NCBI GenBank assembly: GCA_945877855.1
Contig: CAMDWA010000028.1
Span: 1 to 36,367, forward strand
Length of the DNA stretch: 36,367 bases
Direction: 5' to 3'
Origin: Thermoflexus hugenholtzii JAD2
Lineage (GTDB): Bacteria; Chloroflexota; Anaerolineae; J036; Brachytrichaceae
Below, piece after piece: positions 1 through 36,367 of the stretch (the first letter of the stretch is position 1; every line of letters begins with the position of its first letter). The notes under the pieces were generated by a model. That model was not told where the DNA came from. It did not search any database and was given only the letters and a program-made list of their open reading frames with translations. The translations under genes and the position numbers were made by a program.

Positions 1-108
1 TCTTTTCATTGCTAACGGGCGTTTGGTTTGTGTCTTTCATACCCCTTACTTTACTTCCGTTAGCTTTCTCCCTTTCTTTTTTTGACCTCTGAAACTGCCA
101 AACTCCAG

Positions 109-156
109 TCACTATCTCCCACAGCTGCGCTGTGGGAGATAGTGAGTGAAATCGGC
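109..156. repeat. REP-like palindromic hairpin element (family 1, partial copy) just 3' of rlmN
   Basis: Inverted repeat cactatctcccacagc/gctgtgggagatagtg with the conserved right terminus GTGAAATCGGC shared with copies at 8735, 10016 and 30581. Confidence 0.6.
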
Positions 157-4502: not shown

Positions 4503-4625
4503 GGGAGCCGTGAGCCATGAGCTTTGAGCTTTGAGCCTTGAGCCTTGAGCTATGAGTCACAAGTCACGGCTCATGGCTCATGGCTCATAGCTCATGGCTC
4601 CAAAGCTCATGCCTCACGGCTCAAA
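4503..4625. repeat. Quasi-palindromic heptamer array (TGAGCNN x7, then its complement NNGCTCA x8) in the divergent promoter region
   Basis: Left arm tgagcca/tgagctt/tgagctt/tgagcct/tgagcct/tgagcta; the right arm is the complementary set cggctca/tggctca/tggctca/tagctca and so on. It sits between the GT gene start (4478, minus) and the CMD start (4642, plus). Confidence 0.75.
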
Positions 4626-6718: not shown

Positions 6719-8704
6719 ATGCAAATTTCACTTGTTCCTTTATTATTGCTTGTGCTGCTATTTTTGATGATCCTCTTGATCATCGTGTTGTTAGCGGGCA
6801 TACGCATCATTCCCAACAATCGGGTTGGGATTGTCGAAAAAAAGTTTAGCGGTAAAGGCTCGGTTAAATCTGGGTTTATTGCCCTCAACGGCGAAGCTGG
6901 TTTTCAGCCACAGGTATTGCGCGGTGGCATTCATTATCTGATGCCATTTCAATACTCGGTGCATGTCGTGCCATTGGTCACGATTCCCCAAGGCAAAATC
7001 GGCTATATATTTGCGCGTGACGGGTTAATGTTAAACGCCACCCAAAGTTTGGCCTCCAACTTAACCGCCAGCGATTTTCAAGATGTGGTGGGCTTTTTGA
7101 AGAATGACGGCCAACGTGGCCCACAACGCCAAATTCTGCGCGAAGGCACTTATGCCATCAACTTAGTGCAATTTATTGTCATTACCGAAGAGCGTGTGTT
7201 TTATCTGCCCATTAACCGTGATGAAACGCAGATGATTCAAAATATGGCGACGGTCATCGGTGAACGCAAAGGCTTTACCCCGCTGGTGATCAAAGATTCT
7301 GACGACCTCATTGGTATTATTACAGTGCATGATGGCCCATCGTTGCCCCAAGGCGAGATTATTGCGCCGGTGCGTGGCGACGATGCCAATAACCGCGAAA
7401 CGTATCACAACAATTTTCAAGATGCCGACCGCTTTTTGCTGGCGGGTGGGATGCGCGGCAGACAATTACAGGTGATGGTTGAAGGCACTTATTACATCAA
7501 CCGCCTATTTGCGACGGTTGAAATGGTGAAAAAGACCATTATTGATGTGGGTAATGTCGGCGTGATCATCTTTTACACCGGTAATGTTGGCGAAGACATT
7601 TCGGGGGCCGACTATAAACATGGTGAATTGGTGCGCAAAGGCTATCGCGGGGTATGGGAAGAGCCGATGCTACCCGGCAAATATGCGCTAAATACCTATG
7701 CGGCACGGGTGGTGATTGTGCCAACCACTAACTTTATTCTCAAGTGGAACCGCAGCGAAGTGGGCGCCCATCGTTTTGACGAAAACTTGTCAGAGGTGTC
7801 GCTCATTACCAAAGACGCTTTCGAGCCGCTTTTGCCGTTGTCAGTGGTGGTGCATATCGATTATCGCAAAGCCCCGTTGGTCATTCAACGCTTTGGCGAT
7901 GTAAAACGCTTGGTTGAACAAACGCTTGACCCAATGGTAGCGGCCTATTTTAAGAATGTGGGCCAAACCCGCACCCTGATTCAGCTCATTCAGGAGCGCA
8001 GCGATATTCAAAAGATATCGAGCACCGAGATGAAAGAGAAGTTTACCCACTATAACCTTGAGCTAGAAGAGGTGCTCATTGGCACACCGACAGCAGCCAA
8101 GGGCGACCTCCAAATCGAAACCATTTTGACGCAATTGCGCCAGCGCCAAATTGCGCAAGAAAAGATCGAGACGTATCAACGTCAAGAACAGGCGGCGGTG
8201 CAAGAACGAGTGTTACGCGAAGCCGAATCGCGGGCCGAGCAACAAACCCGCATCACCGAGTCGGAATTGAACATTATGGTGCAAGGCAACCAAGGCAAGG
8301 CCGATTATCAACGCGCCGTGCAACAATCGGCCCAAATTCGTATTTTGGCCGAGGCCGAAGCCGAAAAAGCCGCCAGAATTGGGATTGGGCAAGCCTTGGC
8401 GATTGATGAACAAGTGCGGGCCTATGGTGGGCCACAATATCAAGTGACACAACAAGTGATGAATCGCTTTGCCGAAGCGATTGAGGCGGCTGGGGTCGAT
8501 GTTGTGCCACGCATCTCGATCAGCGGTGGCGCTGGTGGGGGGGCTGGCAGCAATAATTTGATGGAAGGGTTGATGGCGATGTTGTTGTCGGAGCGCATGG
8601 GGGTGACGTTAAATACGCCCAATACCCCGCGCAGTCCCGAAGCCGAAGCCATGCGCAAACAGATTATGGAAAGTTTGGCGAAAAAGTCTGAGGCATCTTC
8701 TTAA
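6719..8704 (+). CDS. SPFH/band-7 flotillin-like protein (YqiK/FloT-like)
   Basis: N-terminal TM helix, a PHB/SPFH core, and a long E/A/Q-rich coiled coil (EAEAEKAARIG...) typical of flotillins. Confidence 0.6.
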   Translation: MQISLVPLLLLVLLFLMILLIIVLLAGIRIIPNNRVGIVEKKFSGKGSVKSGFIALNGEAGFQPQVLRGGIHYLMPFQYSVHVVPLVTIPQGKIGYIFARDGLMLNATQSLASNLTASDFQDVVGFLKNDGQRGPQRQILREGTYAINLVQFIVITEERVFYLPINRDETQMIQNMATVIGERKGFTPLVIKDSDDLIGIITVHDGPSLPQGEIIAPVRGDDANNRETYHNNFQDADRFLLAGGMRGRQLQVMVEGTYYINRLFATVEMVKKTIIDVGNVGVIIFYTGNVGEDISGADYKHGELVRKGYRGVWEEPMLPGKYALNTYAARVVIVPTTNFILKWNRSEVGAHRFDENLSEVSLITKDAFEPLLPLSVVVHIDYRKAPLVIQRFGDVKRLVEQTLDPMVAAYFKNVGQTRTLIQLIQERSDIQKISSTEMKEKFTHYNLELEEVLIGTPTAAKGDLQIETILTQLRQRQIAQEKIETYQRQEQAAVQERVLREAESRAEQQTRITESELNIMVQGNQGKADYQRAVQQSAQIRILAEAEAEKAARIGIGQALAIDEQVRAYGGPQYQVTQQVMNRFAEAIEAAGVDVVPRISISGGAGGGAGSNNLMEGLMAMLLSERMGVTLNTPNTPRSPEAEAMRKQIMESLAKKSEASS

Positions 8705-8734
8705 TATACCAAGAAAAGATAAAAATTAAGAAAA

Positions 8735-8782
8735 CGCCGATTTCACACTCCCTCCGCAATCGGAGAGAGTGTGAAATCGGCG
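8735..8782. repeat. REP-like palindromic hairpin element (family 1) 3' of the flotillin gene
   Basis: cgccgatttcacactccctccg-caat-cggagagagtgtgaaatcggcg. Conserved termini GCCGATTTCAC/GTGAAATCGGC with a variable but self-complementary CTCCC/GGGAG core. Confidence 0.75.
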
Positions 8783-8801
8783 AAATTTGTTTTCATGGCG
8801 G

Positions 8802-10015: not shown

Positions 10016-10075
10016 GCCGATTTCACTATCTCCCTCCCATAGCTACGCTGTGGGAGGGAGATAGTGAAATCGGCC
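10016..10075. repeat. REP-like palindromic hairpin element (family 1, full copy) 3' of the GNAT gene
   Basis: gccgatttcac-tatctccctcccatagc-tacg-ctgtgggagggagata-gtgaaatcggc, a perfect hairpin. Confidence 0.8.
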
Positions 10076-10288
10076 CTTCATCTTTATCGGAATTTGCTTT
10101 ATTTAAACAAAAAACGCGAGTGTTTACTCGCGTTTTTTGTTTATCTGCCAGCCCTAGCAGCTATCTAGGCGATGCAATGTGACAGGTCTTTTGCCTTAGG
10201 TCTTAATCCCCCTATTCTCTCTATCTTTATCAAGGTGATAGCGGTCGGGATATCTCTTATGCTCACATGCATTCGAGGGATATATAAA

Positions 10289-13869: not shown

Positions 13870-14840
13870 TCACCCCCCTGATGGGTAGCACGGCACTGGC
13901 TTGTTGGATAGTGCACAACAACCTCACAAGACCAGTCCGCGTTGACGCAAATGCAGCACTCACCCTGCTATCAATTGAGGCGGTGGGCGCGTTTGTCTGG
14001 CTTGCTTGCGCGGCTCGTGCGGGGGCAGATGCCCAGCAACTGACAGTTGCTGGGCATCTACTCACCCTTAATTGATGGCAAACGTAACACTCACCACGCC
14101 ATCAATTGAGGCAGTGATGGGGTTAGTCTGGCGTGCTTGCGCGGCTCATGCGGGTGCAGATGCACCGCACCTCGCAGGTGCGGCGCATCTACTCACCCCA
14201 CGTTGGTGGCAAATGCAACGCTCACCCCGCCCTCAATTGAGGCAGTGATGGGGTTAGTCTGGCTTGCTTGCGCGGCTCGTCCGGATGCAGATGCACCGCA
14301 CCTCGCAGGTGCGGCGCATCTACTCACCCTTAAATTGATGGCAATGCAACGCTTACCCCGCCCTCAATTGAGGCAGTGGGCGCGGTCATTTGGCTTGCTT
14401 GCGCGGCTCGTGCGGGGGCAGATGCCCAGCAACTGACAGTTGCTGGGCATCTACTCACCCTTAATTGATGGCAAACGTAACACTAACCCCGCCATCAATT
14501 GAGGCAGTGACGGGGTTAGTCTAGCTTGCTTGCGCGGCTCATGCGGGTGCAGATGCGCCGCACCTGCGAGGTGCGGCGCATCTACTCACCCTTAAATTGG
14601 TGGCAAATGTAACACTCACCCTGCCCTCAATTGAGGCGGTGACGGGGTTAGTCTGGCGTGCTTGCGCGGCTCGTGCAGGTGCAGATGCCCAGCAACTGGC
14701 AGTTGCTGGGCATCTACTCACCCTTAAATTGATGGCAAATGCAACGCTCACCCCACCCTCAATTAAGGCGGTGGGCGCGGTCGTTTGGCTGGCTTGCGCG
14801 GATCGTGCGGGTGCAGATGCGCCGCACCTGCGAAGGGCGA
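13870..14840. repeat. Tandem array of about 7.4 units of ~131 bp (130-133 bp), each with two conserved hairpins and two alternating variants
   Basis: Unit starts (motif caattgagg) at 13971, 14104, 14234, 14365, 14496, 14628 and 14760. Variant A hairpin is gatgcccagcaactg-aca-cagttgctgggcatc; variant B hairpin is gatgcgccgcacct-gcg-aggtgcggcgcatc. A second hairpin, aattgatggc...gcc(a/c)tcaatt, spans the unit junctions. Confidence 0.85.
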
Positions 14841-23194: not shown

Positions 23195-23371
23195 GTTGTA
23201 AGATGATTATAAGTCATGTGGCATTTCAGTCATGCGAGGATAAACGAGGGTTTGACGATTATTAAAAGATAGACCAAGCAAGAGAAAAATCGGCGCAAAT
23301 CGCATTTTTATACCTATCTTAGTATAAAAGCTGTGATACTTTTGCGATTGCCACGTATATTTATTTAGAAC

Positions 23372-24965: not shown

Positions 24966-25068
24966 GTGGCAGGAGGCAAGTGGCAGGTAGCAAGTGGCAA
25001 GTAAAAAGTATCTAACTACTTTGCACTTTGCACTTTGCACTTGCCACTTGCCACCTGCCACCTGCCCC
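24966..25068. repeat. Quasi-palindromic heptamer array (GTGGCAR x~7 / YTGCCAC x~7) followed by a T-tract; probable terminator or attenuator between the anti-sigma and ABC genes
   Basis: gtggcag gaggcaa gtggcag gtagcaa gtggcaa ... tttgcac x3 ttgccac x2 ctgccac ctgcccc, then tttttt and the ABC ATG at 25075. Confidence 0.75.
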
Positions 25069-25074
25069 TTTTTT

Positions 25075-25998
25075 ATGTTCGTTATCGAAACCCAACACCT
25101 GCAAAAACAATTTGGCAATAAGCTAGCCGTTGCCGATCTTACGCTCACGGTCAACTCAGGCGAGGTGTTTGGGTTTCTGGGGCCAAATGGGGCAGGTAAA
25201 AGCACCTCAATTAAAATGTTGTTGGGGTTAGTCAAACCCAGTGCGGGCAACTGTTGGGTATTGGGGTTGCCGCCCGGCAATGTGCAAGCTCGCCGCAAAA
25301 TTGGCTTTTTGCCCGAGCATTTTCGTTTTCACGATTGGCTGACCGGACGCGAGTTTCTGCATTTTCACGGGCGGTTATATGGCATGTCGGGCCAAGCACT
25401 CAAACAACGGATCGAGACATTGCTGGCGCGGGTCGCCTTGTTAGAAGCGGGCGACCGCAAATTGCAACAATATAGCAAAGGCATGTTGCAGCGCATCGGG
25501 TTGGCAATGGCCTTGCTCAATCACCCCCAAATTGTCTTTTTAGACGAGCCAACCTCAGGGCTTGACCCATTAGGCCGCCTGCTGGTGCGCGATATCATCA
25601 CGGAAATACGCAACGAAGGCACTACTGTCTTTCTAAATTCGCACTTGCTCAGCGAAATCGAAGTGACGTGTAACCGCGTGGTTTTTCTCAAGCGCGGCAA
25701 TGTGGTGCGCGAAATCAACTTAAAAGACAATGAAATTCATATCAACGAACTCGAACTAAAATTGGGGCCGGTCGATGACAGCATTTTGCAAGGGTTAGCC
25801 CAATTTGGCAGCAATGCCCATCGAGATGGCGACCTCATTCGCATGAATATTCAAGACGAAGCCAGCCTGCCACAACTGGCCCGTTGGCTGGTCGGCCAAG
25901 GTTGCGAAATTTATCGCCTCGCTGCCCATCACCCATCGCTTGAACAACTGTTTGTTGAAACCATGACCGAAGAAAATAAGTTAACCATTGATGGTTAA
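25075..25998 (+). CDS. ABC transporter ATP-binding protein (ABC-2 / exporter type)
   Basis: Walker A GPNGAGKST, signature YSKGMLQRIGLA, and Walker B IVFLDEPTSGLD. Confidence 0.85.
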   Translation: MFVIETQHLQKQFGNKLAVADLTLTVNSGEVFGFLGPNGAGKSTSIKMLLGLVKPSAGNCWVLGLPPGNVQARRKIGFLPEHFRFHDWLTGREFLHFHGRLYGMSGQALKQRIETLLARVALLEAGDRKLQQYSKGMLQRIGLAMALLNHPQIVFLDEPTSGLDPLGRLLVRDIITEIRNEGTTVFLNSHLLSEIEVTCNRVVFLKRGNVVREINLKDNEIHINELELKLGPVDDSILQGLAQFGSNAHRDGDLIRMNIQDEASLPQLARWLVGQGCEIYRLAAHHPSLEQLFVETMTEENKLTIDG

Positions 25999-26078
25999 TG
26001 ATTAATGGTCAATGATTAATGGTTAATGATTAATGGTTAATGATTAATGATTAATGATTAATGATTAATGATTAATGG
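25995..26078. repeat. Heptanucleotide microsatellite TTAATGR x12 spanning the ABC ATPase stop codon and the permease start codon
   Basis: Units counted directly as ttaatga, ttaatgg, tcaatga, ttaatgg, ttaatga, ttaatgg, ttaatga x5, ttaatgg. The ATPase TAA (25996-98) is in unit 1 and the candidate permease ATG (26068) is in unit 11. Confidence 0.85.
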
Positions 26079-26946
26079 TAGTTTTGCTGCGTTAAAAATG
26101 ATGTTTACGATCGCCCATCTCACCTTTCATGAAGCCCTGCGCAAGCGGGTATTACTGGCGGCCATTGTGCTGGGGGCACTTTTTCTCATCGTCTTTGGCG
26201 TTGGCATTTATTTTATTAACGATGCGGTCATCCAACAAGAGTTACGATCAGCGCCGTCGGCCATTCGTGCCCAAAGCAACCGCCTCGCCTATAATTTTTT
26301 GGCGATGGCCGGGCTATACACGGTGAATTTTTTGCTGGTCATGATGGCAACCCTGTTACCCGTTGACACCCTTTCGGGCGAAATAAGCTCTGGCTCAATT
26401 CAGTCATTGGTGGTTAAACCGGTGCGGCGCTCGCAAATTGTGCTAGGCAAATGGCTGGGCTTTGCGTTCATTATGCTGATTTATGCCAGCTGCATGATTG
26501 GCGGCATCGTTGGCCTGGTGGCAATCATGACCAGCTATGACTTGCCCAATATTCACATCGCCCTGCCGATTATGTTACTCGAAACCTTGCTATTGCTCAC
26601 CTTGTCGATTGCAGGCGGCACGCGATTTACCACCTTAACCAATGGCGTTTTTGTGTTTGGTATGTTTGGCTTGGCCTTTATCGGCGGCTGGGTCGAGCAA
26701 GTCGGCGGTTTACTTGGCAATCAGGCCGCGCAAAATATCGGGGTCATCACCAGCCTCATCATGCCTAGCGAAGCGCTGTGGCGGCTAGCCGCGCATTATA
26801 TGCAACCCGATGGCATAAGCGCACTCAACATCACCCCATTTTCAAGCACCATTGTGCCCAGCCCCAATATGTTATTGTGGGCCATTGGCTACACCCTTAT
26901 TACGTTACTGCTCGCCATCCGCCACTTCTCGCAAAGAGATTTATAA
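26068..26946 (+). CDS. ABC-2 family transporter permease
   Basis: 292 aa with about 6 TM helices, located downstream of the ABC ATPase. The start is ambiguous (26068 inside the heptamer repeat, or ATG 26098). Confidence 0.65.
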   Translation: MINGSFAALKMMFTIAHLTFHEALRKRVLLAAIVLGALFLIVFGVGIYFINDAVIQQELRSAPSAIRAQSNRLAYNFLAMAGLYTVNFLLVMMATLLPVDTLSGEISSGSIQSLVVKPVRRSQIVLGKWLGFAFIMLIYASCMIGGIVGLVAIMTSYDLPNIHIALPIMLLETLLLLTLSIAGGTRFTTLTNGVFVFGMFGLAFIGGWVEQVGGLLGNQAAQNIGVITSLIMPSEALWRLAAHYMQPDGISALNITPFSSTIVPSPNMLLWAIGYTLITLLLAIRHFSQRDL

Positions 26947-26972
26947 ATTTACCGCATTTTCTCAATCATTGG

Positions 26973-27075
26973 GAGCATCCCCAAAAGACGTAACGCCGAA
27001 CGCACTGTCACTTTGTGTTTGAAGAGGGCAAAGCCTTCTTCAAACACAAAGTGACAGTGCGTTCGGCGAAAATAG
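26973..27075. repeat. ~100-bp palindromic MITE-like element (family 2, copy 1, inverted orientation)
   Basis: cgccgaacgcactgtcactttgtgtttgaagagggcaaagccttcttcaaacacaaagtgacagtgcgttcggcg plus the tail ggggatgc...cgtcttttgg. Near-identical to the copies at 32410 and 34717. Confidence 0.8.
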
Positions 27076-27166
27076 ATTTTGATTTCCCCTGTTTATTGAA
27101 TAGATATAAAAATACAATATAATATTACAGCAAAACTGAAAATCTATAATATTTCGGGGGTGTCTC

Positions 27167-29230
27167 ATGACTTCTGTTCGATTAGGCCAAATTTTTTTAG
27201 CAATGATTTTGTTGATCTCGGCGGCAAATTTACAACCTGCGCAGGCCTTGCCACCATCGCCAAATTTAACAACAACGCAAGCGATTGCACCGCAATTAGC
27301 CACTCGTGCCAACAATGCACCCAGCGCCCCAGCCGCCCCCAACGACCGGCTCATTGGCCTGGATTTAAACGAAATTAGCATTCAACCTGCCTCAAACGGC
27401 TTTGAATGGGTGGAACTGAAAAATAATTATTGGCTAGAGGTAGACATCAGCGGCTATAAACTGAGCAACGAAGAAGGCATGTGGTTCGTCTTCCCAACCC
27501 TGCCGCCAGTGCCGCCCGAAACCTTCGTGCTGGTCATCTTCGATGGCATGGGCAGCGCCGCCAACGACACCGACTCCAGCGATAAACGCATTACCTTGCA
27601 CAGCCCGCCGGATATGGTGAATGTGCTAAATGATCAAGCTGGACAACTCAGCCTATATGGGCGTGGCACACGCGCTTTTTTGCCGCTGATTGCCAACAAC
27701 CTGAGCGAAAACACCGCTGACGAACCCTCATTGCCTTGGCGTGAAGCCGGTGTGCCGCCCATTGCCATGCGCGATTTTGTAGCATGGGGAACTGCGCCCA
27801 CCGATGCCCCCGGCCCCAAAGCCGAAGCCGCAATTGCGGCAGGCTTGTGGCAAAAAGATATGTTTGTGCCACTCGACTTTGAAGGCACAACCGTTGCCAT
27901 GCAAGGCAAAACCATCGGACGTTATCCCGGCAGGTATTTGTATAACTTCGTCGAGACGGATTGGCTCATTTATTCGTCGGGCGATGTGACCCAAGGCAGC
28001 GACAATAAAAACCTCGCACCCGATATCTTATCGCCCGTCGCCAATACCACCCTAATCAATATTCAACGCCCAGAGATTATTTGGTCGCCGCTCGACTTGG
28101 TTGAAAGTTATCAAGTGCAGATTGACGACGAAGCTACCTTTGCCACACCGCTTATTTCAGGCACAGTCGCAGGCACGTTTTACTCAGCCTTGCCCACCAA
28201 CAATTTAAATTATGGGCGTTATTATGCGCGGGTCAAAGCCTTCTTTAATAATAAAACCCAGTCAGCCTTCTCGCCATCGGTGGTGTTTACCTTGGCCAAA
28301 ACAATCACGCTTGCCAGCAAATCGACCGCCGACACCTTGCCCAACTTCAGTGCTAGCCCAAATGCAGACTTACCGGTAAGTATTACTGCACCCGCCAAAG
28401 ACACGAAATCGCTCGATTTACATAATTTATGGACCAACCAAGGCGCATGGGATACCGCCCATGCCAAACCAGAAAACGCCAAAGACGTGCTACTTTACAA
28501 TAATTTCAGCACCATCCAAGCCATGGCAAAATATTATGGCGGCAACCTCAGCCAAGATCGTATTGCCTATGAATTTTGTAAAAATTATGGCGAACGTGAA
28601 TTAGATCTGTGTCCGATCAATCTCACTCGTCGCATCTTGGCTTGGAACAAAGGGGAAAATTTTCGATTGCTGTTGCAGTGGGCATTGAATGGCACTGAAG
28701 TACAGTCATATACAATAACCGAAAGGGATGATTACACTGACGAAATTGTAAATGCACTTGCGAATCGGATCCCTGTAATTATTTTTGCCAACTATCAGAG
28801 ATCAATGTCTGCGGGCATCACGACAAATATGCTAAGCAGAGATAAATTGATTGGCATTACGCCGCTCTTTAGACAACCCCATATGTTTGTTCATCCTCGG
28901 TTTCTGGTTCAGGTTAAAGCCCAAGTGACTATTTTTATCCCCAAAAACGCACCGGTCGCCAATGCACCAGCCCGCCGCGATGAAGATTTGAATAACAACG
29001 GGGTTTCTGACCTGAATGACGACACCGATGGCGACGGCGTATCAGACTTTGACGAGCGCGTGCGTTTTCAATCGCCCTTTGGCGGCTTAGATCTGGCCAA
29101 TGCTGATAGTGACGGCGACCTTGTGCCAGACAAAACCGAGATTTTTGCCTATACCAAAGACCACCGTTATGCCGATATTGACCGCGACGGCAAGCGCAAC
29201 GAAATTGACCCCGACAGCGACCGATTTTGA
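27167..29230 (+). CDS. Large secreted protein: signal peptide, lamin-tail-like domain, FN3-like domain and thrombospondin type-3 (Ca-binding DxDxDG) repeats; ends at an in-frame TGA
   Basis: Signal MTSVRLGQIFLAMILLISAANLQPAQA; LTD-like INEISIQPASNGFEWVELKNN...DISGYKL; TSP3-like DLNDDTDGDGVSDFDE, DSDGDLVPDKTE, DIDRDGKRNEIDPDSD. An AT-rich, rare-codon segment lies at about 28540-28920. Confidence 0.65.
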   Translation: MTSVRLGQIFLAMILLISAANLQPAQALPPSPNLTTTQAIAPQLATRANNAPSAPAAPNDRLIGLDLNEISIQPASNGFEWVELKNNYWLEVDISGYKLSNEEGMWFVFPTLPPVPPETFVLVIFDGMGSAANDTDSSDKRITLHSPPDMVNVLNDQAGQLSLYGRGTRAFLPLIANNLSENTADEPSLPWREAGVPPIAMRDFVAWGTAPTDAPGPKAEAAIAAGLWQKDMFVPLDFEGTTVAMQGKTIGRYPGRYLYNFVETDWLIYSSGDVTQGSDNKNLAPDILSPVANTTLINIQRPEIIWSPLDLVESYQVQIDDEATFATPLISGTVAGTFYSALPTNNLNYGRYYARVKAFFNNKTQSAFSPSVVFTLAKTITLASKSTADTLPNFSASPNADLPVSITAPAKDTKSLDLHNLWTNQGAWDTAHAKPENAKDVLLYNNFSTIQAMAKYYGGNLSQDRIAYEFCKNYGERELDLCPINLTRRILAWNKGENFRLLLQWALNGTEVQSYTITERDDYTDEIVNALANRIPVIIFANYQRSMSAGITTNMLSRDKLIGITPLFRQPHMFVHPRFLVQVKAQVTIFIPKNAPVANAPARRDEDLNNNGVSDLNDDTDGDGVSDFDERVRFQSPFGGLDLANADSDGDLVPDKTEIFAYTKDHRYADIDRDGKRNEIDPDSDRF

Positions 29231-30046
29231 GATGACCGCTCACGCGATGGCTGTGAAGATGCCAATCGTAATGGGTTTTATGATTCACAAGCCACCGGCA
29301 ATAACAAAGAAACCAACAACGCCGACCCAAGCCAAGAAAAAGACTGCAAAAACCCCGAAATTAGCATCACCAGCCCCGCCGCTGGGGCCAAGATCGATGC
29401 TTGTTTGGCCGATTTACAAGGCGAAATTGTCAGCGTGCCCGACATGAAAATTCTCACCGCCGAAATCATCGCCGCAAAACAACAATCACACGTGCAACTT
29501 TCTTTTACAAAATCGTCAGATCGTTACACGTTCAAGCAAAAATTGCCCTTATTCAAAGGCAAAAACACCGTGCTGATTAACGCTACCAATGCCGACGGCG
29601 GCTCAGATCAAGAATTGCTCGTGCTGTCGTGTGATCGCGCCGCCGATCTACATTTGCAACTGACATGGGGGCAAATTGGGCGTGATGTCGATTTGCATTT
29701 GTTGCGCGGCAGCGCCGCCCTTAATTCAAAAGATGATTGTTATTACGCCAATGCCAACCCAGATTGGGGAGATGCTGGTAACCCCGACGATAACCCCAAG
29801 TTAGATGTGGATTGCATCAGCAATTGCACCGTCGAAAACATTTACTTTACTGCCCCCAAACCGGGCCTCTATACCGTCATCGCCTATTATTACAATGATA
29901 AAAGCCAAGGCCCAACTGTGCCACAAGTGACGATTAATGCACGTGGCAAAACCTATAAATTGGGGCCACGCACCTTAGCCAAAACAGGCGACCAATGGAC
30001 GGTAGCGACCATCGAAGTGACAGCCACTGATATCATTGTCAGGTGA
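29231..30046 (+). other. In-frame, stop-free continuation of the preceding ORF after the TGA (further TSP3-like repeat, Ig-like segment, PPC-like DVDLHL domain)
   Basis: Same reading frame as 27167..29230, with no stop between 29231 and 30046. The translation DDRSRDGCEDANRNGFYD...LHLQLTWGQIGRDVDLHLL...YTVIAYYYNDKSQG continues the domain architecture. Confidence 0.55.
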
Positions 30047-30135
30047 TTGAATGACAAACCATCATTTTTCGCTGCGCCAAACGGCACAACTTCACATAAA
30101 TTCATAACCGCTGACATCGCGTTTACAATACATTT

Positions 30136-30519
30136 ATGAAAATAGCCCGCACCTTTGCAATCATGGCAATCGTCATGTTAATACTCGATCTTCTTGCCAT
30201 CAACTTTATCGTCATGCCAATGTTTAACCAATATCTGGGGGATTGGCTAACCCCCACACCACGCTTATGGGCAGCGGGTTTGTTTTATGTCATTTACCTC
30301 ATTGGCGTATATATATTGGCAATTCAACCTTCAGCAACAGCAACACAAGCACTAACCCGCGGGGCATTGTTGGGGTTAGTGGCATATGGCACATACGAAT
30401 TAACCAATATGGCAACCCTACAACGCTGGGCAATGCCTATGCTGATCGCTGACCTTGCGTGGGGCACAACCCTCACCGCCATTGTGGCATGGGCTGGGCA
30501 TAAGGCCCGCCGAGCATAA
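30136..30519 (+). CDS. DUF2177-like small membrane protein
   Basis: 127 aa with four hydrophobic helices. Family assignment is from general resemblance only. Confidence 0.4.
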   Translation: MKIARTFAIMAIVMLILDLLAINFIVMPMFNQYLGDWLTPTPRLWAAGLFYVIYLIGVYILAIQPSATATQALTRGALLGLVAYGTYELTNMATLQRWAMPMLIADLAWGTTLTAIVAWAGHKARRA

Positions 30520-30580
30520 TCAAACAATAAAATAGCTTTTTCGCTTGACATTGTCATATTCGCAAATGCCAATAGGTTTT

Positions 30581-30634
30581 CGCCAATTTCACGATCCCCA
30601 CTCAGCATAGCTAAGTGGGGATCGTGAAATCGAC
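30581..30634. repeat. REP-like palindromic hairpin element (family 1 variant) 3' of the DUF2177 gene
   Basis: gccaatttcac-gatccccact-cagcatagc-taagtggggatc-gtgaaatcgac. Confidence 0.7.
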
Positions 30635-30702
30635 ATACCTCTTGCTTAATCTGGCCTTGTCAAGTTAGTATAACGAATACCAAATACATCCTTTCCGAAA
30701 AA

Positions 30703-32352
30703 ATGAAAAGTAATATTCACGCCCCACGCGGCACCCAACTTGCCTGCAAAAACTGGCAAATCGAAGCAGCCTACCGCATGTTACAAAACAACCTCGACCC
30801 TGAGGTTGCATTTGACCCCGACAACCTAATTGTGTATGGTGGGCGTGGGCGTGCCGCTCGTAACTGGCAAAGCTACGAAGCCATTCTCGAATCATTACGC
30901 ACCCTCGAACCGACAGAAACCTTGCTGGTGCAAAGCGGCAAGCCAGTGGCAATATTTCGCACCCATGCCGATGCACCTCGGGTGCTATTGGCAAACAGCA
31001 ATATTGTGCCCAAATGGGCCACCCAAGAAAATTTCGACAAATGGGAACGCGAAGGCCTCATCATGTATGGACAAATGACCGCTGGAAGCTGGATTTACAT
31101 CGGCACTCAAGGCATTTTGCAAGGCACCTACGAAAGCTTTGGCGCACTAGCGCGCAAACATGGCTGGGGCAGCCTAAAGGGTCGGCTGGTGCTCACGGCG
31201 GGTTTGGGCGAGATGGGCGGCGCGCAGGCGCAAGCCATTACCTTTAACGAAGGCGTGGGCGTGTTGGTTGAAGTTGACCCTTGGCGCGTCGAGCGACGGC
31301 TAAAACTGCGCCAACTCGATGTGGCGACCGACAACCTTGAAGAAGCCATGACCTGGGCCGATGAAGCCAAAACCAAAGGCATCGCCAAAAGCATTGGGCT
31401 AATCGGCAATGCCGCCGAAGTATTGCCTCGTTTGCTTAATTATGGCATTGTGCCCGATGTCGTCACCGACCAAACCAGTGCCCATGATGTCATGGTTGGC
31501 TACATTCCCACAGGGCTATCGGTGGCCGAAGCCACCGAATTACGCACCTCACACCCCGACCAATATAAACAACGCGCCATGCAATCGATGGCAACCCACG
31601 TCCAAACCATGCTCGAATTTCAACGTCGGGGCAGCGTGGTGTTTGACTATGGCAACAACCTGCGCCAACGCGCCTTTGACTACGGCGTAACCGATGCCTT
31701 CAACTACCCGGGCTTTGTGCCAGCCTATATTCGCCCACTGTTTTGCGAGGGCAAAGGCCCATTTCGTTGGGTCGCCCTCAGCGGCGACCCCGAAGATATT
31801 TACAAAACCGATCGCGCCATTGCAGCCCTATTCCCCGAAAATGAACACTTGTTGCGCTGGCTCAAATTGGCAGGCGATCATGTGGCATTTCAAGGCCTGC
31901 CCGCCCGCATTTGCTGGCTGGGTTATGGCGAACGCGCCAAAGCCGGGCTAATGTTTAACGAAATGGTGGCACGCGGCGAATTAAAAGCCCCCATTGTGAT
32001 TGGGCGCGATCACCTTGACAGCGGCAGCGTGGCCTCACCCAACCGTGAAACCGAGGCCATGAAAGATGGCAGCGATGCCATTGCCGATTGGCCGTTGCTT
32101 AATGCCATGGTGAATGCGGTGAATGGCGCAACCTGGGTCAGCCTCCATCACGGCGGCGGGGTTGGCATTGGTTATAGCATTCACGCCGGTCAGGTCATTG
32201 TGGCCGATGGCACAGCCGATGCCGCCCGTCGCCTCGAGCGTGTATTGACCAGCGACCCCGGCATGGGCGTTGTTCGTCATGTCGATGCCGGTTACGATGA
32301 AGCCATCACCTTTGCCCGTGCCAACGGGGTTAAGGTGCCGATGATGAAGTAA
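30703..32352 (+). CDS. hutU: Urocanate hydratase
   Basis: 549 aa; N-terminus [32 protein letters not shown] and a body typical of HutU along the full length. Confidence 0.9.
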
Positions 32353-32409
32353 TTTTAGCGTTTAGATTTACAATTAAAATAATTCAAAAATAGCGAAGAT
32401 TAAAACAAA

Positions 32410-32510
32410 TTTTCGCCGAACTCACTATCATTTTGTGTTTGGAGAGGGCTTTGCCCTCTCCAAACACAAAATGATAGTGAGTTCGGCATTACGTCTTTTG
32501 GGGACGCCCC
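32410..32510. repeat. ~100-bp palindromic MITE-like element (family 2, copy 2)
   Basis: ttttcgccgaactcactatcattttgtgtttggagagggctttgccctctccaaacacaaaatgatagtgagttcggcattacgtcttttggggacgcccc. Confidence 0.8.
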
Positions 32511-32548
32511 AATGATTAAAAGATACAAAAATTCAATCGTCAATCATA

Positions 32549-33412
32549 ATGAAGACTCAAATCACCGCCCAAGCCGCATTAAGCCTATTACCCCTGCCCA
32601 ACAACCGGCGTGATGCCGAAGTCGGCAGACGTGGCACACTCATCGTCGAAATGTATGCGCCCAAAGGCACAGACCCGCAGCAACCCCACAACCAAGATGA
32701 GCTTTACATTGTCTATTCTGGCAATGGCACTTTTGTGTGCGGCGACGAGCGCATGACATTTGGCGTTGGTGATGTGTTATTTGTGCCCGCCGGTGTTACT
32801 CACCGCTTCGAGCAATTCAGCGACGATTTCGCCACTTGGGTGGTGTTTTATGGCGAAGCCGGTGGCGAGTTACCTTTGCCCGCCGCCATTGCCGAAGGCG
32901 AAAACCCGCCGCCCGACAGCGCCCTCACCCGCAATGCGCTGATTTGGCGCACCCGCAGCGCCTATGGCGTGCTAAGCGAATTTCTCGACTCGCTTAGCGA
33001 AAGCCAAGCCACCGACCCCAAAGATGCCGCAGGTTGGGCGGTCAAAGATCACGTGTTACACCTCGTGCCATGGCTGCGCAGCATGATTTGGGTGATGAAT
33101 AAACGCCCCAAAGTGGATGGCATGGGAATAAGCAAGGAGCAATATGCCCAAGGCTTTGATGTCGTCAATGACATTATCTTCCAACGCGAAAAACACCGCA
33201 GTTTTTACGATGCCCGTTGGCAACTGCATCGCTGTTATAGCGAATTTATGGCGCTATTAATGTCATTACCCAACGAGGCCGTGTTGCAGCCGTTTAAATC
33301 CTATCAAACGGATTCAGACAAAACCGATCCGGTTATCTTTTGGCTATGGGGCAACAGCGGCGGGCATTTTTATGAACATTTGCCTTGGATGAAAGCCATT
33401 ATCAACCAATGA
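32549..33412 (+). CDS. Cupin-domain protein fused to a DinB/ClbS-like helical domain (hypothetical), inserted between hutU and hutI
   Basis: N-terminal cupin motifs (GTFVCGDERMTFGVGDVLFVPAGVTHRF); a C-terminal ~170 aa with a VKDHVLHLVPW-type helical-bundle motif. ATGA overlap with hutI. Confidence 0.35.
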   Translation: MKTQITAQAALSLLPLPNNRRDAEVGRRGTLIVEMYAPKGTDPQQPHNQDELYIVYSGNGTFVCGDERMTFGVGDVLFVPAGVTHRFEQFSDDFATWVVFYGEAGGELPLPAAIAEGENPPPDSALTRNALIWRTRSAYGVLSEFLDSLSESQATDPKDAAGWAVKDHVLHLVPWLRSMIWVMNKRPKVDGMGISKEQYAQGFDVVNDIIFQREKHRSFYDARWQLHRCYSEFMALLMSLPNEAVLQPFKSYQTDSDKTDPVIFWLWGNSGGHFYEHLPWMKAIINQ

Positions 33413-34707
33413 ACTGCGACCTCATCATCCACTCCGCCGCCCAACTCGTTACCTGCGCCAGCGCCAATAACGGCCCCAAACGCGGCCATGACATGCGCGA
33501 CGTTGGCGACATCGCCAATGGCAATCATTTGCCCGCCGCCATCGCCATTAGCGATGGGCAAATTATTGCCATTGGCCCAAGTGACGATATTTGTGCCGAC
33601 TATCAGGCAAAGCACAGCATCGATGCCAGCGGCAAAACCATTTGCCCGGGGTTGATCGACCCCCATACTCACCTCATTTACGCTGGCGACCGCGTGGCCG
33701 AATGGGAGATGAAACTGCGTGGTGTCGCCTACTTAGAAATTTTGGCCGCGGGCGGCGGCATCGTCAGCACCATGCGGGCCACACGGGCTGCCGGGATAGC
33801 CGCGCTGGTGGCGCAAGCAAAGCCGCGCCTCGACACGCTGATGCGTAATGGTGTCACCACTTGCGAGATCAAAACCGGTTATGGCCTCAGCCTCGAGGCC
33901 GAATTAGCCATGTTACAAGCCATTGAACAACTGGCACAAACCCACCCATGCGATGTGCTTTTAACATTACTCGCCGCCCATACCACCCCACCCGAATTTA
34001 AAACCGACCCAAATGGCTATGTCGATTTGGTGGTTGAGCAAATCATTCCCCAAGCCGCCGCATGGTTTAATCAAAACGCCCGTGCCAACCACGCTACACC
34101 CATGGCATGTGATGTATTTTGCGAAAATCACGCCTTTGATGTGGCGCAAGCACGGCGAATATTAATGGCAGGCAAACAACATGGCCTCACACCTAAAATC
34201 CACGTCGATCAATTTACCTCATTGGGCGGGGTCGAGATGGCGCTTGAGGTCGGCGCGTTATCGTGCGATCATTTAGATGTGACCACAGCCGACGATCGGG
34301 CGCGGCTAGCGCAATCATCGGCTGTAGCAGTGGTGTTACCCGCGGTCACATTTCATCTTGGCAGCCACCAATTTGCCAACGCCCGTGCTTTTATTGATGA
34401 TGGCTGTGCACTCGCGCTCAGCACCGACCATAACCCCGGCTCGGCCCCGTGTTTGTCGCCTGCGCTCACCATGTCGATCGCATGTCGTTACCAGAAACTC
34501 AACCCTGCCGAAGCGCTCAACGCTTGCACCATCAACGCCGCCCATGCACTTGGCATCGGCAACAAAGTTGGCTCGCTCGAAATCGGCAAACAAGCCGATA
34601 TCATTATCATCAACGCGCCCGACTATCGCCACTTAGCCTATCAATTTGGGGGCAATTTGGTGCAATATGTTATTAAAAATGGGGCAGTAGCAATGGTTAA
34701 TGGTTAA
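33409..34707 (+). CDS. hutI: Imidazolonepropionase
   Basis: Amidohydrolase fold with GLIDPHTHL, KIHVDQF and the metal-ligand pattern typical of HutI. Start taken at MNCDL, overlapping the upstream stop; the track ORF starts at 33385. Confidence 0.85.
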   Translation: MNCDLIIHSAAQLVTCASANNGPKRGHDMRDVGDIANGNHLPAAIAISDGQIIAIGPSDDICADYQAKHSIDASGKTICPGLIDPHTHLIYAGDRVAEWEMKLRGVAYLEILAAGGGIVSTMRATRAAGIAALVAQAKPRLDTLMRNGVTTCEIKTGYGLSLEAELAMLQAIEQLAQTHPCDVLLTLLAAHTTPPEFKTDPNGYVDLVVEQIIPQAAAWFNQNARANHATPMACDVFCENHAFDVAQARRILMAGKQHGLTPKIHVDQFTSLGGVEMALEVGALSCDHLDVTTADDRARLAQSSAVAVVLPAVTFHLGSHQFANARAFIDDGCALALSTDHNPGSAPCLSPALTMSIACRYQKLNPAEALNACTINAAHALGIGNKVGSLEIGKQADIIIINAPDYRHLAYQFGGNLVQYVIKNGAVAMVNG

Positions 34708-34716
34708 TGAATTTAT

Positions 34717-34816
34717 TTTCGCCGAACTCACTATCACTTCGTGTTTGGAGAAGGCAAAGCCTTCTCCAAACACAAAGTGATAGTGAGTTCGGCATTACGT
34801 CTTTTATGGTCACCCC
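34717..34816. repeat. ~100-bp palindromic MITE-like element (family 2, copy 3)
   Basis: ttttcgccgaactcactatcacttcgtgtttggagaaggcaaagccttctccaaacacaaagtgatagtgagttcggcattacgtcttttatggtcacccc. Confidence 0.8.
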
Positions 34817-34836
34817 AAATTATTGGAAAAATACTA

Positions 34837-34873
34837 AAAAGCCTTGATTTCTGATCAAAATCAAGGCTTTTTT
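34837..34873. terminator. Bidirectional rho-independent terminator (stem aaaagccttgatt / aatcaaggctttt, with T/A tracts on both sides)
   Basis: Hairpin followed by TTTTTT on the + strand (hut operon side) and by TTTTT on the minus strand immediately 3' of the tRNA. Confidence 0.7.
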
Positions 34874-34876
34874 ATA

Positions 34877-34950
34877 CGCCCTCAGAGAGACTCGAACTCC
34901 CGACCTAGGCATTAGAAGGGCCGCGCTCTATCCACCTGAGCTATGAGGGC
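34877..34950 (-). tRNA. tRNA-Arg (anticodon TCT), no encoded CCA
   Basis: Minus-strand sequence GCCCTCATAGCTCAGGTGGATAGAGCGCGGCCCTTCTAATGCCTAGGTCGGGAGTTCGAGTCTCTCTGAGGGCG. Clover-leaf with a 7-bp acceptor stem, GCTC/GAGC D-stem, T-arm GGGAG-TTCGAGT-CTCTC and anticodon loop CTTCTAA. The anticodon stem has only 3 Watson-Crick pairs (C:U at 27:43 and 31:39). Confidence 0.7.
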
Positions 34951-34966
34951 AAGCGCATCGCGCCAA

Positions 34967-35386
34967 CTACACCATCATAATTGGCTTAATTCCATTATAC
35001 ACAACCCGTCCGCTGAGCTGAGTCAACACATCAGCCGAACGACGCCCCATCATGGCAGCTAACTCAATGGTGGTTAATGGCTTATTATTATTCACCAAAA
35101 AAATACGAAAGGCCGCCTCAAACACTGGGGTACGGGCGCTAATGAAATCTGGCGCCTTCGCCGATTCATCACGAATCATTTTGACGGCGGCGTTAACATG
35201 CTGCACCTCGCCGGTATCTTCGTCAATATAGTCATACGCAGTCGTATTCGGCGAATTACCCAACCGCTCCAATTGCTCGGCGGTTAGGTATTTTTGAATC
35301 AGCACATTCACATCTTGGCCCTTTTCATCGAACCAGTTGTAATCAATGTGAAATTTGGTTTGTTCGGTGGGACGAAAGAATTTCAT
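34967..35386 (-). CDS. Hypothetical protein (139 aa)
   Basis: Intact ORF with no recognisable motifs, located immediately beyond the tRNA. Confidence 0.35.
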   Translation of the reverse strand: MKFFRPTEQTKFHIDYNWFDEKGQDVNVLIQKYLTAEQLERLGNSPNTTAYDYIDEDTGEVQHVNAAVKMIRDESAKAPDFISARTPVFEAAFRIFLVNNNKPLTTIELAAMMGRRSADVLTQLSGRVVYNGIKPIMMV

Positions 35387-35394
35387 AATCGACT

Positions 35395-36367
35395 TTAATT
35401 ACGCTCGCTCAAATGCCAATAGTTATCACCAACAGGCAAAAAGGCTGGGTTATTGCACAAAGCATTAAACACATCACGCGGGGCAGTGCGAATTAATAAA
35501 TTGACCACCGCATACAACGTTCGGGCATGCACATTGCCTTGAGGGCTAAGTTTGGCAATTTCAGGGAATACCTCACGCACAATTTGTGCCACATCGCGGG
35601 TTTGCCCAACACGCACATTTTCAAACACCCGCAGGTCATCCGCATACAACGACATCAAATCATCGGCATCACATGTAGTGGCACGTTGTGCTGTATCAAG
35701 CCGCAAACGCCCATCACGGACACTCGCAACTCGCACCCAATCCCGCTTAGGTTTATGGCGCTTACCATCAATAATAAATACGTTGACATCTGGCCCGCGT
35801 GATATTTCGATTGTAGCGCCAACGGGCAAATCATTGGTCTTATACCAATCTGCCAATCCCCAAATATAATTGCCCTCTTTTACCAACCAAGCCGTAAACT
35901 GCTTATTATTCATCTTATCGCGCAAGAAAATAGGGATACGCGGCTTAGCCGTTTTAGGGAACACCGATGCCAAACGCCGCCCTAACCCCAAGGTGCCGGC
36001 ACGCCGATGTGGCGCAGTTAAAACAACCGTCGCTGAATTTTGCGGGGCAAGATTCCCTAGATGTTGGGTTGTGGATATATCCAGTTCGTCATCTAGCTCA
36101 ATCATCAATTGATCCAGTGGCGGCAATGGGTTATCTTTTGTTAAAACCTTGCCAACCAACGCCGATGGAAACTCACGCACTTGATCTGGCTCGAGCCGGC
36201 GCAAAAACCACGCTGGCTTATCGGTCAGGCTGACCTCATCAAAACGAGGGTCAGCGGCTAACACGGTGTTAAGTGACACTTCTTGCAATGAGCGAGCAAT
36301 TTCTTGCGGCAAACCAAGATCACGCAAAATAATGTGGGTAGGCAATGGCCCGCCCTCAGCCACTTCG
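35395..36367 (-). CDS. Hypothetical protein, 5'-partial (runs off the window edge)
   Basis: ORF is open to the window end with no recognisable motifs. 8-nt gap to the downstream ORF, so probably in an operon with it. Confidence 0.35.
   Translation of the reverse strand, partial: EVAEGGPLPTHIILRDLGLPQEIARSLQEVSLNTVLAADPRFDEVSLTDKPAWFLRRLEPDQVREFPSALVGKVLTKDNPLPPLDQLMIELDDELDISTTQHLGNLAPQNSATVVLTAPHRRAGTLGLGRRLASVFPKTAKPRIPIFLRDKMNNKQFTAWLVKEGNYIWGLADWYKTNDLPVGATIEISRGPDVNVFIIDGKRHKPKRDWVRVASVRDGRLRLDTAQRATTCDADDLMSLYADDLRVFENVRVGQTRDVAQIVREVFPEIAKLSPQGNVHARTLYAVVNLLIRTAPRDVFNALCNNPAFLPVGDNYWHLSERN

Follow-up and report, generated by a model that had tools for sequence, protein, structure and literature searches.

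Among bacteria, the IS-derived MITEs include the Correia elements of Neisseria, enterobacterial ERIC, pneumococcal RUP and bcr1 of Bacillus cereus, and both Correia elements and ERIC affect mRNA processing. These MITEs are about 100–160 bp long and non-coding, have many intergenic copies, carry terminal inverted repeats and are flanked by target-site duplications. The whole unit folds as a long imperfect hairpin, and it can bear outward promoter-like hexamers and add stable hairpins to mRNAs. An 8-bp target duplication is a property of the IS66 family; Y1 elements produce no target duplications. ISDge4, an active element of the ISBst12 group in the IS66 family, encodes a single ORF, ends in GTAACTGCTCAGCA and produces a direct repeat of 8 bp (PMC12898284). 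REPs have 5–13-bp stems, a GTAG or CGTC tag, no target duplication and a link to Y1 transposases (PMC3733652).

Here we analysed three palindromic repeats (hereafter, copies A, B and C) in a 36,367-nt stretch of DNA (hereafter, the window). They are copies of an abundant MITE family that is of a known kind and is itself new. The repeats are likely to be a non-autonomous IS66-type MITE with ISBst12-type ends, which is moved in trans and whose palindrome is kept by a DNA-level process. The general features of Correia, ERIC, RUP and bcr1 given above are shared by the window family, which differs from them in having IS66-family (ISBst12-type) ends and an 8-bp duplication, not TA or TTTAT. Its centre is a 35-bp perfect palindrome of free sequence that is nevertheless complementary and has a flipping loop, and this central module recurs in elements with other ends.

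Structure and age of the copies in the window

In this Chloroflexota lineage the full unit is 154 bp long, with a 73-nt perfect hairpin at its centre, the linker AATAAAACAAATTTTC before it and ATTACGTCTTTTGGGGnnnn after it, and an end of 22 nt on either side. The linkers are asymmetric, and the terminal inverted repeat is GTATCTTCTCAATAA(nnn)GGGG. The three copies and their parts are as follows.

26954..27107, minus strand: MITE copy A, exactly 154 bp, both terminal inverted repeats kept in degenerate form (12/15 each)
26995..27067, unstranded: central hairpin of copy A, arms of 35–36 nt that are 97% complementary, loop AAA on the plus strand
27093..27107, plus strand: outer inverted repeat of copy A, paired with the one at 26954–26968; its sequence ttattgaatagatat matches TTATTGAGAAGATAC
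32392..32526 (start approximate), plus strand: MITE copy B, with left linker, hairpin, right linker and a right inverted repeat ending at 32526
34706..34834 (start approximate), plus strand: MITE copy C, with short left linker, hairpin at 34721–34793, right linker and right inverted repeat at 34820–34834

The repeats are real and lie where a sequence-only reading of this DNA had placed them, with A inverted relative to B and C and with the neighbours it had named. Copy A is between the ABC-2 permease stop (26944–26946) and the LTD-protein gene, B between hutU and the cupin-DUF1706 gene, and C between hutI and tRNA-Arg, its left linker abutting the hutI stop codon (34705–34707). What had been described as a unit of about 100 bp is in fact the 154-bp element with outer inverted repeats. 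The hairpin of each copy is 73 nt long, the arms being 35 bp and the loop 3 nt. It is perfect in B (32415–32487; 35+3+35 nt, 100% complementary), and the arms of A and C are 97% complementary. The copies were 85–89% identical over the hairpin and 82–87% over the core of about 100 bp, lower than the >90% previously given, and the supposedly fixed asymmetric tail is exact in B only (A, gttacgtcttttgggg; C, attacgtcttttatgg). The fold energies of the window hairpins are extreme (z = −11.6 to −14.9), e.g., −48.5 kcal/mol for the DNA fold of the copy A hairpin (z = −11.6) and −80.1 kcal/mol for the RNA fold of copy B (z = −14.9). A 27-nt arm pattern had six matches in the window, with 0.00 expected from 100 shuffles.

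Both ends were recognised in A (12/15), and only the right end in B and C, given that the left inverted repeat of B is unrecognisable and the left arm of C is gone. As B and C are each short of one end, they are relics. Copy A has an ortholog, also of 154 bp, in the MAG REEB501 (L033:129–282), and the two differ by compensated substitutions; because the orthologous site lies in a region that is 92% identical, copy A predates the split from REEB501. None of the three copies is a recent insertion, i.e., they are old or decayed, which does not fit the recent spread that had been proposed.

The copies do bracket the block of secreted-protein and hut genes as had been noticed, but they are not the sole copies, because a fourth hairpin module lies inside the block (30582–30634). 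Six hairpin modules plus two remnants were found in the 36-kb window, those besides A, B and C being listed here.

30582..30634, plus strand: 53-nt hairpin module, GCCAATTTCACGATC...GATCGTGAAATCGAC, of the same superfamily but with a different outer frame, between DUF2177 and hutU
10016..10074, plus strand: hairpin module, 59 nt, GCCGATTTCACTATC..., beginning 4 nt past a stop codon; an ortholog is present in REEB501 (L022)
8693..8800, plus strand: degenerate MITE copy; left inverted repeat GCATCTTCTTAATAT, hairpin of 46 nt at 8736–8781
106..156, unstranded: partial hairpin module, right base GATAGTGAGTGAAATCGGC kept
23285..23300, unstranded: deletion remnant, …AAATCGGC; a 55-nt hairpin is intact at the orthologous site of REEB501 (L033:3908–3962)

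Abundance and target-site duplications of the family

At 154 bp, most of which is hairpin, the element is within the size range of MITEs (below about 300 bp, no coding capacity). Its ends are GTATCTTCTCAATAA...TTATTGAGAAGATAC, and the 15 end pairs were 77% paired across 18 copies. In related MAGs we repeatedly found copies that have both ends and are exactly 154 bp long. Genomes scanned for the hairpin module gave at least 78 loci, and most of the matches listed were from REEB501 and CAZLOF01. Among those listed, all were intergenic in four Chloroflexota MAGs except two chance matches, and many of the loci sit at contig ends. An exact scan of metagenomes for the end sequence gave at least 120 loci, which included about 50 short end pairs (91/92, 110 and 146–176 bp), most with perfect 8-bp duplications. 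Many of the short palindromes between genes in these MAGs, and many of the contig breaks, are explained by the family, which is worth masking ahead of searches for regulatory RNAs or terminators.

The 8-mers flanking the element were identical at 7–8 of 8 positions in half of the Chloroflexota copies (8/16), against a chance expectation of about 2/8. Target-site duplications of 8 bp are present in related copies from both Chloroflexota MAGs and the metagenome. Those of the window are not clean. The 8-mers at copy A (AATTTACC / AAAAATAC) match at 3/8, or at 6/8 if shifted by 1 nt, which may indicate a decayed target duplication, and B and C are unscorable.

Ends shared with single-ORF IS66-family elements

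On metagenome contigs, these ends were found inverted to each other and 1.76–1.95 kb apart, enclosing one ORF of 549–593 aa. All four ORFs tested matched PF03050 (DDE_Tnp_IS66; 46.5–56.7 bits, cut-off 23.1), and they scored 114–117 bits with the NCBIfam IS66 model NF033517, which is under its equivalog cut-off of 180. Three of these elements (L118, L143 and L145; 1.76–1.86 kb) contain one long ORF and have no room for others, and thus lack the tnpA/tnpB accessory genes of classical IS66. Homologous transposases were detected at about 20 of the at least 120 loci, with 40–73% identity to that of L145 (49–73% for full-length matches). Perfect 8-bp duplications flank the full elements L182 and L131; duplications are missing from several other full-length IS copies of the metagenome.

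These autonomous elements with the MITE ends resemble ISDge4 and the ISBst12 group in their single ORF with DDE_Tnp_IS66 and their 8-bp duplications, and the ISDge4 end matches the MITE end at 10/14 positions. They differ in that the ISDge4 transposase has 449 aa, compared with 549–593 aa, and in falling under the equivalog cut-off; the window elements differ from the group in being non-coding. Neither the window nor about 640 kb of host-lineage sequence had a transposase with these ends. The transposase-bearing elements were all on contigs of organisms other than that of the window, mostly GC-richer, so that mobilisation in this genome is inferred. The "MITE-like" label given to the repeats beforehand is well founded, considering the terminal inverted repeats, the 8-bp target duplications, the many dispersed copies and the ends shared with elements that encode an IS66-family transposase.

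We propose that the MITE group is set by its terminal inverted repeat, which would be the end of a single-ORF ISBst12-type IS of the IS66 family. An IS66-type DDE transposase supplied in trans would mobilise the 154-bp MITE, with 8 bp of target duplicated per insertion. Copy A would then be complete but mutated, and copies B and C, having lost the left end, would be immobile. A very abundant MITE group (at least 120 metagenome loci, several size classes) is thus tied to a little-studied single-ORF branch of IS66, whose end sequence and target duplication are now given.

Separately, we observed a perfect hairpin with a flipping loop also at the centre of 91-bp MITEs that are unrelated but have the same IS66-type ends.

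Covariation of the hairpin arms

In the alignment of 18 copies, 27 of the 35 hairpin pairs change on both sides and 97% of the cells are paired, a combination reached by 0/500 shuffles. The stem base also co-varies in the 154-bp alignment, e.g., GCCAAACGCAC and GTCAAAATCAC. The mismatches among 630 cells were 11 G·T and 19 other, and with so few G·T cells wobble pairs are not favoured, unlike what is expected for an RNA helix. The loop is AAA or TTT depending on the copy, against the same asymmetric flanks. Near-perfect covariation of the arms is also expected from selection on structure, and strong covariation alone is no proof of RNA function. The correction at the DNA level that we favour is suggested by three observations: wobble pairs are not enriched, the loop flips and orientation is mixed. 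The perfection of the palindrome would mainly come from intra-strand template switching between the arms, by which a change in one arm would be copied to the other and the loop could be flipped as well. With their co-varying arms and flipping loop, the copies offer clean natural data on the upkeep of long perfect palindromes in bacterial DNA.

The hairpin module (GCCGAnnTCACTATC...) was also found within elements with quite different outer ends, which is not predicted by a simple model of two joined IS ends. It is conceivable, though we think it rather improbable, that the central palindrome is no passive filler but a separate unit, a self-maintaining hairpin cassette that was captured by, or moves among, at least four transposon frames. 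Such a cassette may consist of the stem base GCCGAnnTCACTATC, an upper stem that is freely variable yet perfectly paired, and a flipping loop. Its frames may be the IS66-type MITEs of 129/133/154 bp, an IS630-like TA MITE and two more, and it may be needed for efficient mobilisation, e.g., if the ends are brought close to each other by a cruciform or a single-strand hairpin. If this were true, "end-hairpin-end" would be a functional design of IS66-type MITEs and the module would be a new kind of hitch-hiking palindrome.

Relation to transcription

Two further features of the window bear on possible effects of the elements on transcription.

34836..34872, unstranded: canonical bidirectional intrinsic terminator between copy C and tRNA-Arg, outside the element
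27096..27123, plus strand: promoter-like site TTGAAT-16-TATAAT, the first hexamer in the end of copy A and the second in the flank

We consider it unlikely that the elements are primarily structured RNA signals selected by the host in 3' UTRs or operon spacers, i.e., mRNA stabilisers, RNase III processing sites or transcription terminators/insulators, with their transposon features being secondary. The RNA hairpins are indeed very stable (−66 to −80 kcal/mol, z = −13 to −15), and the strong covariation includes compensated changes between orthologous copies, but wobble pairs are not enriched and the loops flip among copies. Copies are near stop codons and occur in 12 convergent but only 6 divergent spacers, and a T run is found 8 nt past the stem on one strand, as a 3' signal might suggest; against this, the orientation is mixed in tandem contexts (14 sense, 19 antisense). 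An effect on mRNA processing like that of Correia elements and ERIC would fit, yet copy B sits inside, and breaks, an operon (hutU-cupin-hutI) that is contiguous in a relative, and even close strains differ by the loss or replacement of copies. For example, segment 32370–32542 with copy B is replaced by a terminator hairpin and vapBC in strains L080, L084 and L086–L088. With Rfam 15 at gathering score, tRNA-Arg was the only match in the window and no element was matched; at a relaxed threshold there were only generic long-hairpin matches to eukaryotic miRNA precursors, far under their thresholds.

A role as terminators or insulators, which the sequence-only reading had suggested, is also not supported. 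An intrinsic terminator has a GC-rich stem followed within 0–2 nt by a T run; here the T run is 8 nt past the stem and on one strand only, and a terminator consensus scan called none of the three elements. Canonical terminators adjoin both copy C and the 10016 module (about 10110–10140), which, with the mixed orientation, leaves the terminator role unsupported.

Under the IS66-type MITE explanation, host effects would be by-products. One would be a very stable hairpin in read-through mRNA, e.g., that of copy B in the hutU-cupin-hutI transcript. Another would be the outward −35-like hexamer in the element end, which in copy A would contribute to the promoter-like site upstream of the LTD gene. 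This putative promoter ends 44 nt before the LTD gene ATG (27167), matches at 10/12 positions (tied best in 26000–36367) and is kept in REEB501 as TTGAAA-16-TATAAT.

Comparison with REP/REPIN palindromes

The family resembles REP/REPIN in consisting of abundant extragenic palindromes near gene 3' ends, in mixed orientation and at assembly breaks. It is nonetheless very improbable that a tyrosine transposase (HUH/Y1, RAYT-type) recognises the hairpin base and flanks and moves the repeats as single-stranded DNA, in the manner of REP/REPIN palindromes. Subfamilies with differing outer arms do have in common the stem base (GCCGA[A/T]nnCACTnTC) and immediate flanks (TTTTC / ATTACGTC), but the base co-varies, so there is no fixed recognition sequence. 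A CGTC motif adjoins many copies and recalls CGTC-tagged REPs (PMC3733652); in REPs, however, the tag is adjacent to a short stem, whereas here it is 4 nt from a 35-bp stem and varies (CATC, TGTC, CGTA). The 8-bp duplications and the 15–22-nt terminal inverted repeats, which are shared with the elements that encode a DDE (IS66-family) transposase, argue against a Y1 partner, and no recurring ORF was found among those neighbouring the hairpin modules.

Gene order around the hut genes

In a relative whose cupin protein is 81% identical (L089/L090), the order DUF2177-hutU-cupin-hutI-(139 aa)-(525 aa)-L9 is as in the window, the hutU-cupin gap is 3 nt and there is no element between hutU, cupin and hutI. 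The elements are therefore younger than the gene order, and the cupin gene did not enter it later, contrary to the idea that a foreign cupin gene had parted hutU from hutI. The same reading had set against its own proposal a ubiquitous terminator module without association to rearrangement; the family is ubiquitous and has no rearrangement link, but it is not a terminator module.

That the copies served as recombination sites uniting the LTD block, hutU, the cupin gene and hutI is hardly credible: they are at block boundaries, the spacer of B is a strain-variable spot with vapBC in other strains and synteny with L089 breaks upstream of DUF2177, but the relative has the same order without elements, cupin and hutI overlap in the window (33412 vs 33385/33409), recombination of A with the oppositely oriented B or C would invert the segment and not assemble it, and the family occupies such a large share of intergenic spacers that any gene block is expected to be bracketed by chance. 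As regards the hut genes, the elements are passengers that did not shape the gene order.

Copies A, B and C belong to a 154-bp element with a long hairpin

The three palindromic repeats around the LTD-protein and hut genes lie where the sequence-only reading had placed them, in the gene context that it described: copy A between an ABC-2 permease and the LTD-domain protein gene, copy B in the spacer between hutU and a cupin-DUF1706 gene, and copy C 3' of hutI, facing tRNA-Arg(TCT). Each copy forms a 73-nt hairpin of 35-bp arms and a 3-nt loop. A 27-nt arm pattern had six matches in the window versus 0.00 expected from shuffles, and the folds were far more stable than shuffled sequence (z = -11.6 to -14.9). 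Pairwise identity is 85-89% for the hairpin and 82-87% for the ~100-bp core, short of the >90% originally proposed, and the asymmetric tail described as fixed matched exactly in copy B only.

Element limits were set by aligning the window copies with relatives at other loci. Conservation extends ~40 nt past the hairpin on either side, up to inverted repeats, and the layout from 5' to 3' is GTATCTTCTCAATAA(nnn)GGGG, linker AATAAAACAAATTTTC, the 73-nt hairpin, linker ATTACGTCTTTTGGGGnnnn and CCCC(n)AATTATTGAGAAGATAC. A length of exactly 154 bp recurs among two-ended copies. The window copies are as follows.

Copy A, 26954-27107: 154 bp, with an ortholog of equal length in the related Chloroflexota MAG REEB501; hairpin at 26995-27067, one mismatch in the stem
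Copy B, ~32392-32526: left linker through right end kept, left end unrecognisable; hairpin at 32415-32487, perfectly complementary
Copy C, ~34706-34834: begins at the hutI stop codon, ~15 nt left of the hairpin remain; hairpin at 34721-34793, one mismatch in the stem

The element belongs to an IS66-type group of MITEs

At Chloroflexota loci, flanking 8-mers were identical at 7-8 of 8 bases in 8 of the 16 two-ended copies (chance, ~2 of 8); AAACAAAG, TTACAAAT and TATTTTAG are examples of 8-mers that stand duplicated on both sides of a copy. An exact scan of metagenome contigs recovered the end sequence GTATCTTCTCAATAANNNGGGG at at least 120 loci. Among the metagenome loci listed, most end pairs spaced 91/92, 110 or 146-176 bp apart had perfect 8-bp duplications, and pairs spaced 1.76-1.95 kb apart enclosed one ORF of 549-593 aa. 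All four ORFs tested matched Pfam DDE_Tnp_IS66 (46-57 bits, cut-off 23.1); the NCBIfam IS66 transposase model also matched them, but under its equivalog cut-off. Perfect 8-bp duplications flanked two full transposase-bearing elements (L182 and L131), and homologous transposases adjoined the end sequence in ~20 of the 120 metagenome loci listed.

Within the IS66 family, the ISBst12 group is characterized by one ORF, a direct repeat of 8 bp and ends starting GTA-CT-CTCA. ISDge4, an active element of this group, combines the end GTAACTGCTCAGCA with an 8-bp repeat (PMC12898284). The ISDge4 end agrees with that of the window family at 10 of 14 positions. Given the 8-bp duplications in the family and the ends shared with IS66-type transposases, we class the three repeats as MITEs of an IS66-type group, and the earlier label 'MITE-like' is right. 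No long high-identity repeats (IS copies) were found in the host-lineage loci examined. A comparison of the ORFs lying up to 2.5 kb from 80 hairpins gave no common neighbor gene as a candidate transposase; the sole sizeable ORF cluster had 10 members, including the ABC ATPase gene region common to the window.

The same IS66-type ends also bound 91/92-bp MITEs that were common in GC-rich metagenome contigs (L094, L125, L147, L149, L174 and others). These are flanked by perfect 8-bp duplications, and at their center lies a GC-rich perfect hairpin, GTGTGCGGGCGGC-GAA/TTC-GCCGCCCGCACAC, whose loop flips between copies.

An integron attC origin, raised by a core-like GCCGAAC...GTTCGGC, was rejected given dispersed copies in both orientations, perfect hairpins without extrahelical bases, and AAC/GTT cores absent from other family members. 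Nor is the element a REP: REP elements have stems of 5-13 bp, whereas those of the window element are 35 bp, and unlike REP its family makes duplications and has a DDE transposase partner. Rfam searches, with the gathering cut-off and with a looser one, gave nothing meaningful, and the papers searched held no account of the end or stem sequences, nor of MITEs in Chloroflexi. We regard the element as a MITE family not described before, though of a familiar type.

The hairpin module recurs in unlike outer frames

In a scan of the genome collection, the palindromic stem base GCCGANNNCACTNTC…GANAGTGNNNTCGGC occurred at at least 78 loci. Those listed were all intergenic save two chance matches and fell in four Chloroflexota MAGs (REEB501; CAZLOF01, 'Thermoflexus sp.'; Anaerolineae AQU-02; and one other), many of them at contig ends. 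The window itself matches an ENA contig and GCA_947492325.1 at 100% identity and REEB501 at 92-99%; metagenomes in which the species occurs include ERZ27280291, SRR20005812 and ERZ17175178. Its 36 kb contain six hairpin modules along with two remnants, and one module (30582-30634) falls within the gene block that the three copies were supposed to bracket. The module and its immediate flanks recur within elements with different outer ends, and this sharing is the basis for a less probable reading of it as a separate unit. Further members are as follows.

Window 10016-10074: 59-nt hairpin family
Window 30582-30634: 55-nt hairpin family
REEB501 loci L020, L036, L047, L068 and others: ~210-bp IS630-like MITE, 17-bp ends AGACAGTGTTTCTTAAA, TA flanks

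The IS630-like MITE has at least 14 near-identical copies in REEB501, many terminating contigs, and holds a 75-nt version of the module. The motif TAGTATAA beside 55-nt-subfamily hairpins was considered as a -10 box and dropped; it appears to lie at the outer end of that subfamily's frame. In a degenerate MITE copy, the left inverted repeat gcatcttcttaatat at 8693-8707 contains the stop codon of a 661-aa ORF (6719-8704), so that the element supplies the end of this reading frame.

Terminator role and possible effects on host genes

A role as terminator or insulator, suggested earlier from position, was not supported. A consensus terminator scan of copies A, B and C called no element, canonical bidirectional terminators lie just past copy C (34836-34872) and past the 10016 module, and orientation is mixed: among 51 scored contexts, the asymmetric strand of the element was the sense strand in 14 tandem spacers and the antisense strand in 19, with the others in convergent (12) and divergent (6) spacers. 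Since the site of copy B is a contiguous operon in a relative, transcription probably reads through this copy. The counter-case named in the sequence-only reading, a ubiquitous terminator module, largely holds, in its ubiquity and its lack of association with rearrangement, and not in its terminator role.

Two side effects on the host are possible. A promoter-like site at 27096-27123 (TTGAAT-16-TATAAT) has 10 of 12 consensus positions and is tied best in 10 kb. It ends 44 nt short of the LTD gene, and REEB501 retains the site. Its TTGAAT faces outward in the end of copy A and its TATAAT lies in the flank, a predicted hybrid promoter that might serve the LTD gene. Copy B, as modeled, would add a hairpin of ~-80 kcal/mol to the hut transcript.

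Upkeep of the stem pairing

In an 18-copy alignment, 27 of the 35 stem pairs showed two-sided change and 97% of cells were paired, a covariation that shuffles and slid controls came nowhere near. G·T cells (11) were not enriched versus other mismatches (19). Against the same asymmetric flanks, the loop reads AAA in some copies and TTT in others; it reads GTA/TAC in other subfamilies and GAA/TTC in the unrelated 91-bp MITEs. Selection on structure may alternatively have kept the stems paired. We favor upkeep of the hairpin at the DNA level rather than by selection on RNA, because G·T is not enriched, loops flip and copies face either way relative to transcription. Template switching from one arm of a quasi-palindrome to the other, established in E. 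coli, would account for the lack of G·T enrichment, the loop flips and the mixed orientation alike.

Age of the copies and gene order of the hut block

Copy A is occupied at the orthologous REEB501 site, in a region 92% identical, and what separates the two stems is one G·T-to-A·T change plus a pair of double substitutions, both fully compensated. Copy A is old. The window copies are old rather than recently spread. Copy B is polymorphic: in five same-species contigs with flanks 98-99% identical, 32370-32542 is replaced by a haplotype (L080:5331-6076) with a 17-bp-stem terminator hairpin, of which the window retains the left arm only, and a vapBC-like pair (86 aa and a PIN-domain protein). At the site of copy C, contigs of a more distant relative (L089/L090; cupin 81% identical) carry another hairpin, 53 nt long and oppositely oriented (L090:2350-2402). 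REEB501 and CAZLOF01 likewise have different hairpin subfamilies in opposite orientation at one orthologous site (L037:~3985-4066 versus L056:2538-2609). Such swaps suggest replacement or inversion at hot spots, not simple vertical descent. Clean empty sites were sought in relatives for all three copies and none was found, A being filled, B replaced and C carrying another hairpin. At window 23285, a hairpin found whole in REEB501 is reduced to its final bases.

The elements had also been proposed as recombination sites that assembled the hut order around a foreign cupin gene. L089/L090 have the order DUF2177-hutU-cupin-hutI and downstream genes as in the window, with a hutU-cupin gap of 3 nt and no element between these genes, and cupin and hutI overlap in the window. 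The genes therefore stood in this order before the elements came in, and the cupin gene was not inserted later with the elements as its borders. The observation of the sequence-only reading is essentially right and its MITE label stands; its functional and historical inferences are not supported.

Other repeats in the window

A GC-rich (0.61) tandem array at 13947-14830, between two minus-strand ORFs, repeats a 131-bp unit 6.7 times (83% matches), a unit length that is no multiple of 3. Every unit carries a 33-nt palindrome, e.g., AGATGCCCAGCAACTGACAGTTGCTGGGCATCT, and the array has no Rfam match. Heptamer tandem repeats lie at 25987-26079, 4505-4623, 24966-25066 and 34693-34706, with units ATTAATG (13 copies), GAGCCTT followed by its complement, and GGCAAGT; such repeats (STRR) are known from filamentous cyanobacteria. 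One heptamer array takes up the entire gap from the ABC ATPase gene to the permease gene, and the last hutI residues, just before copy C, are encoded by two TTAATGG units.
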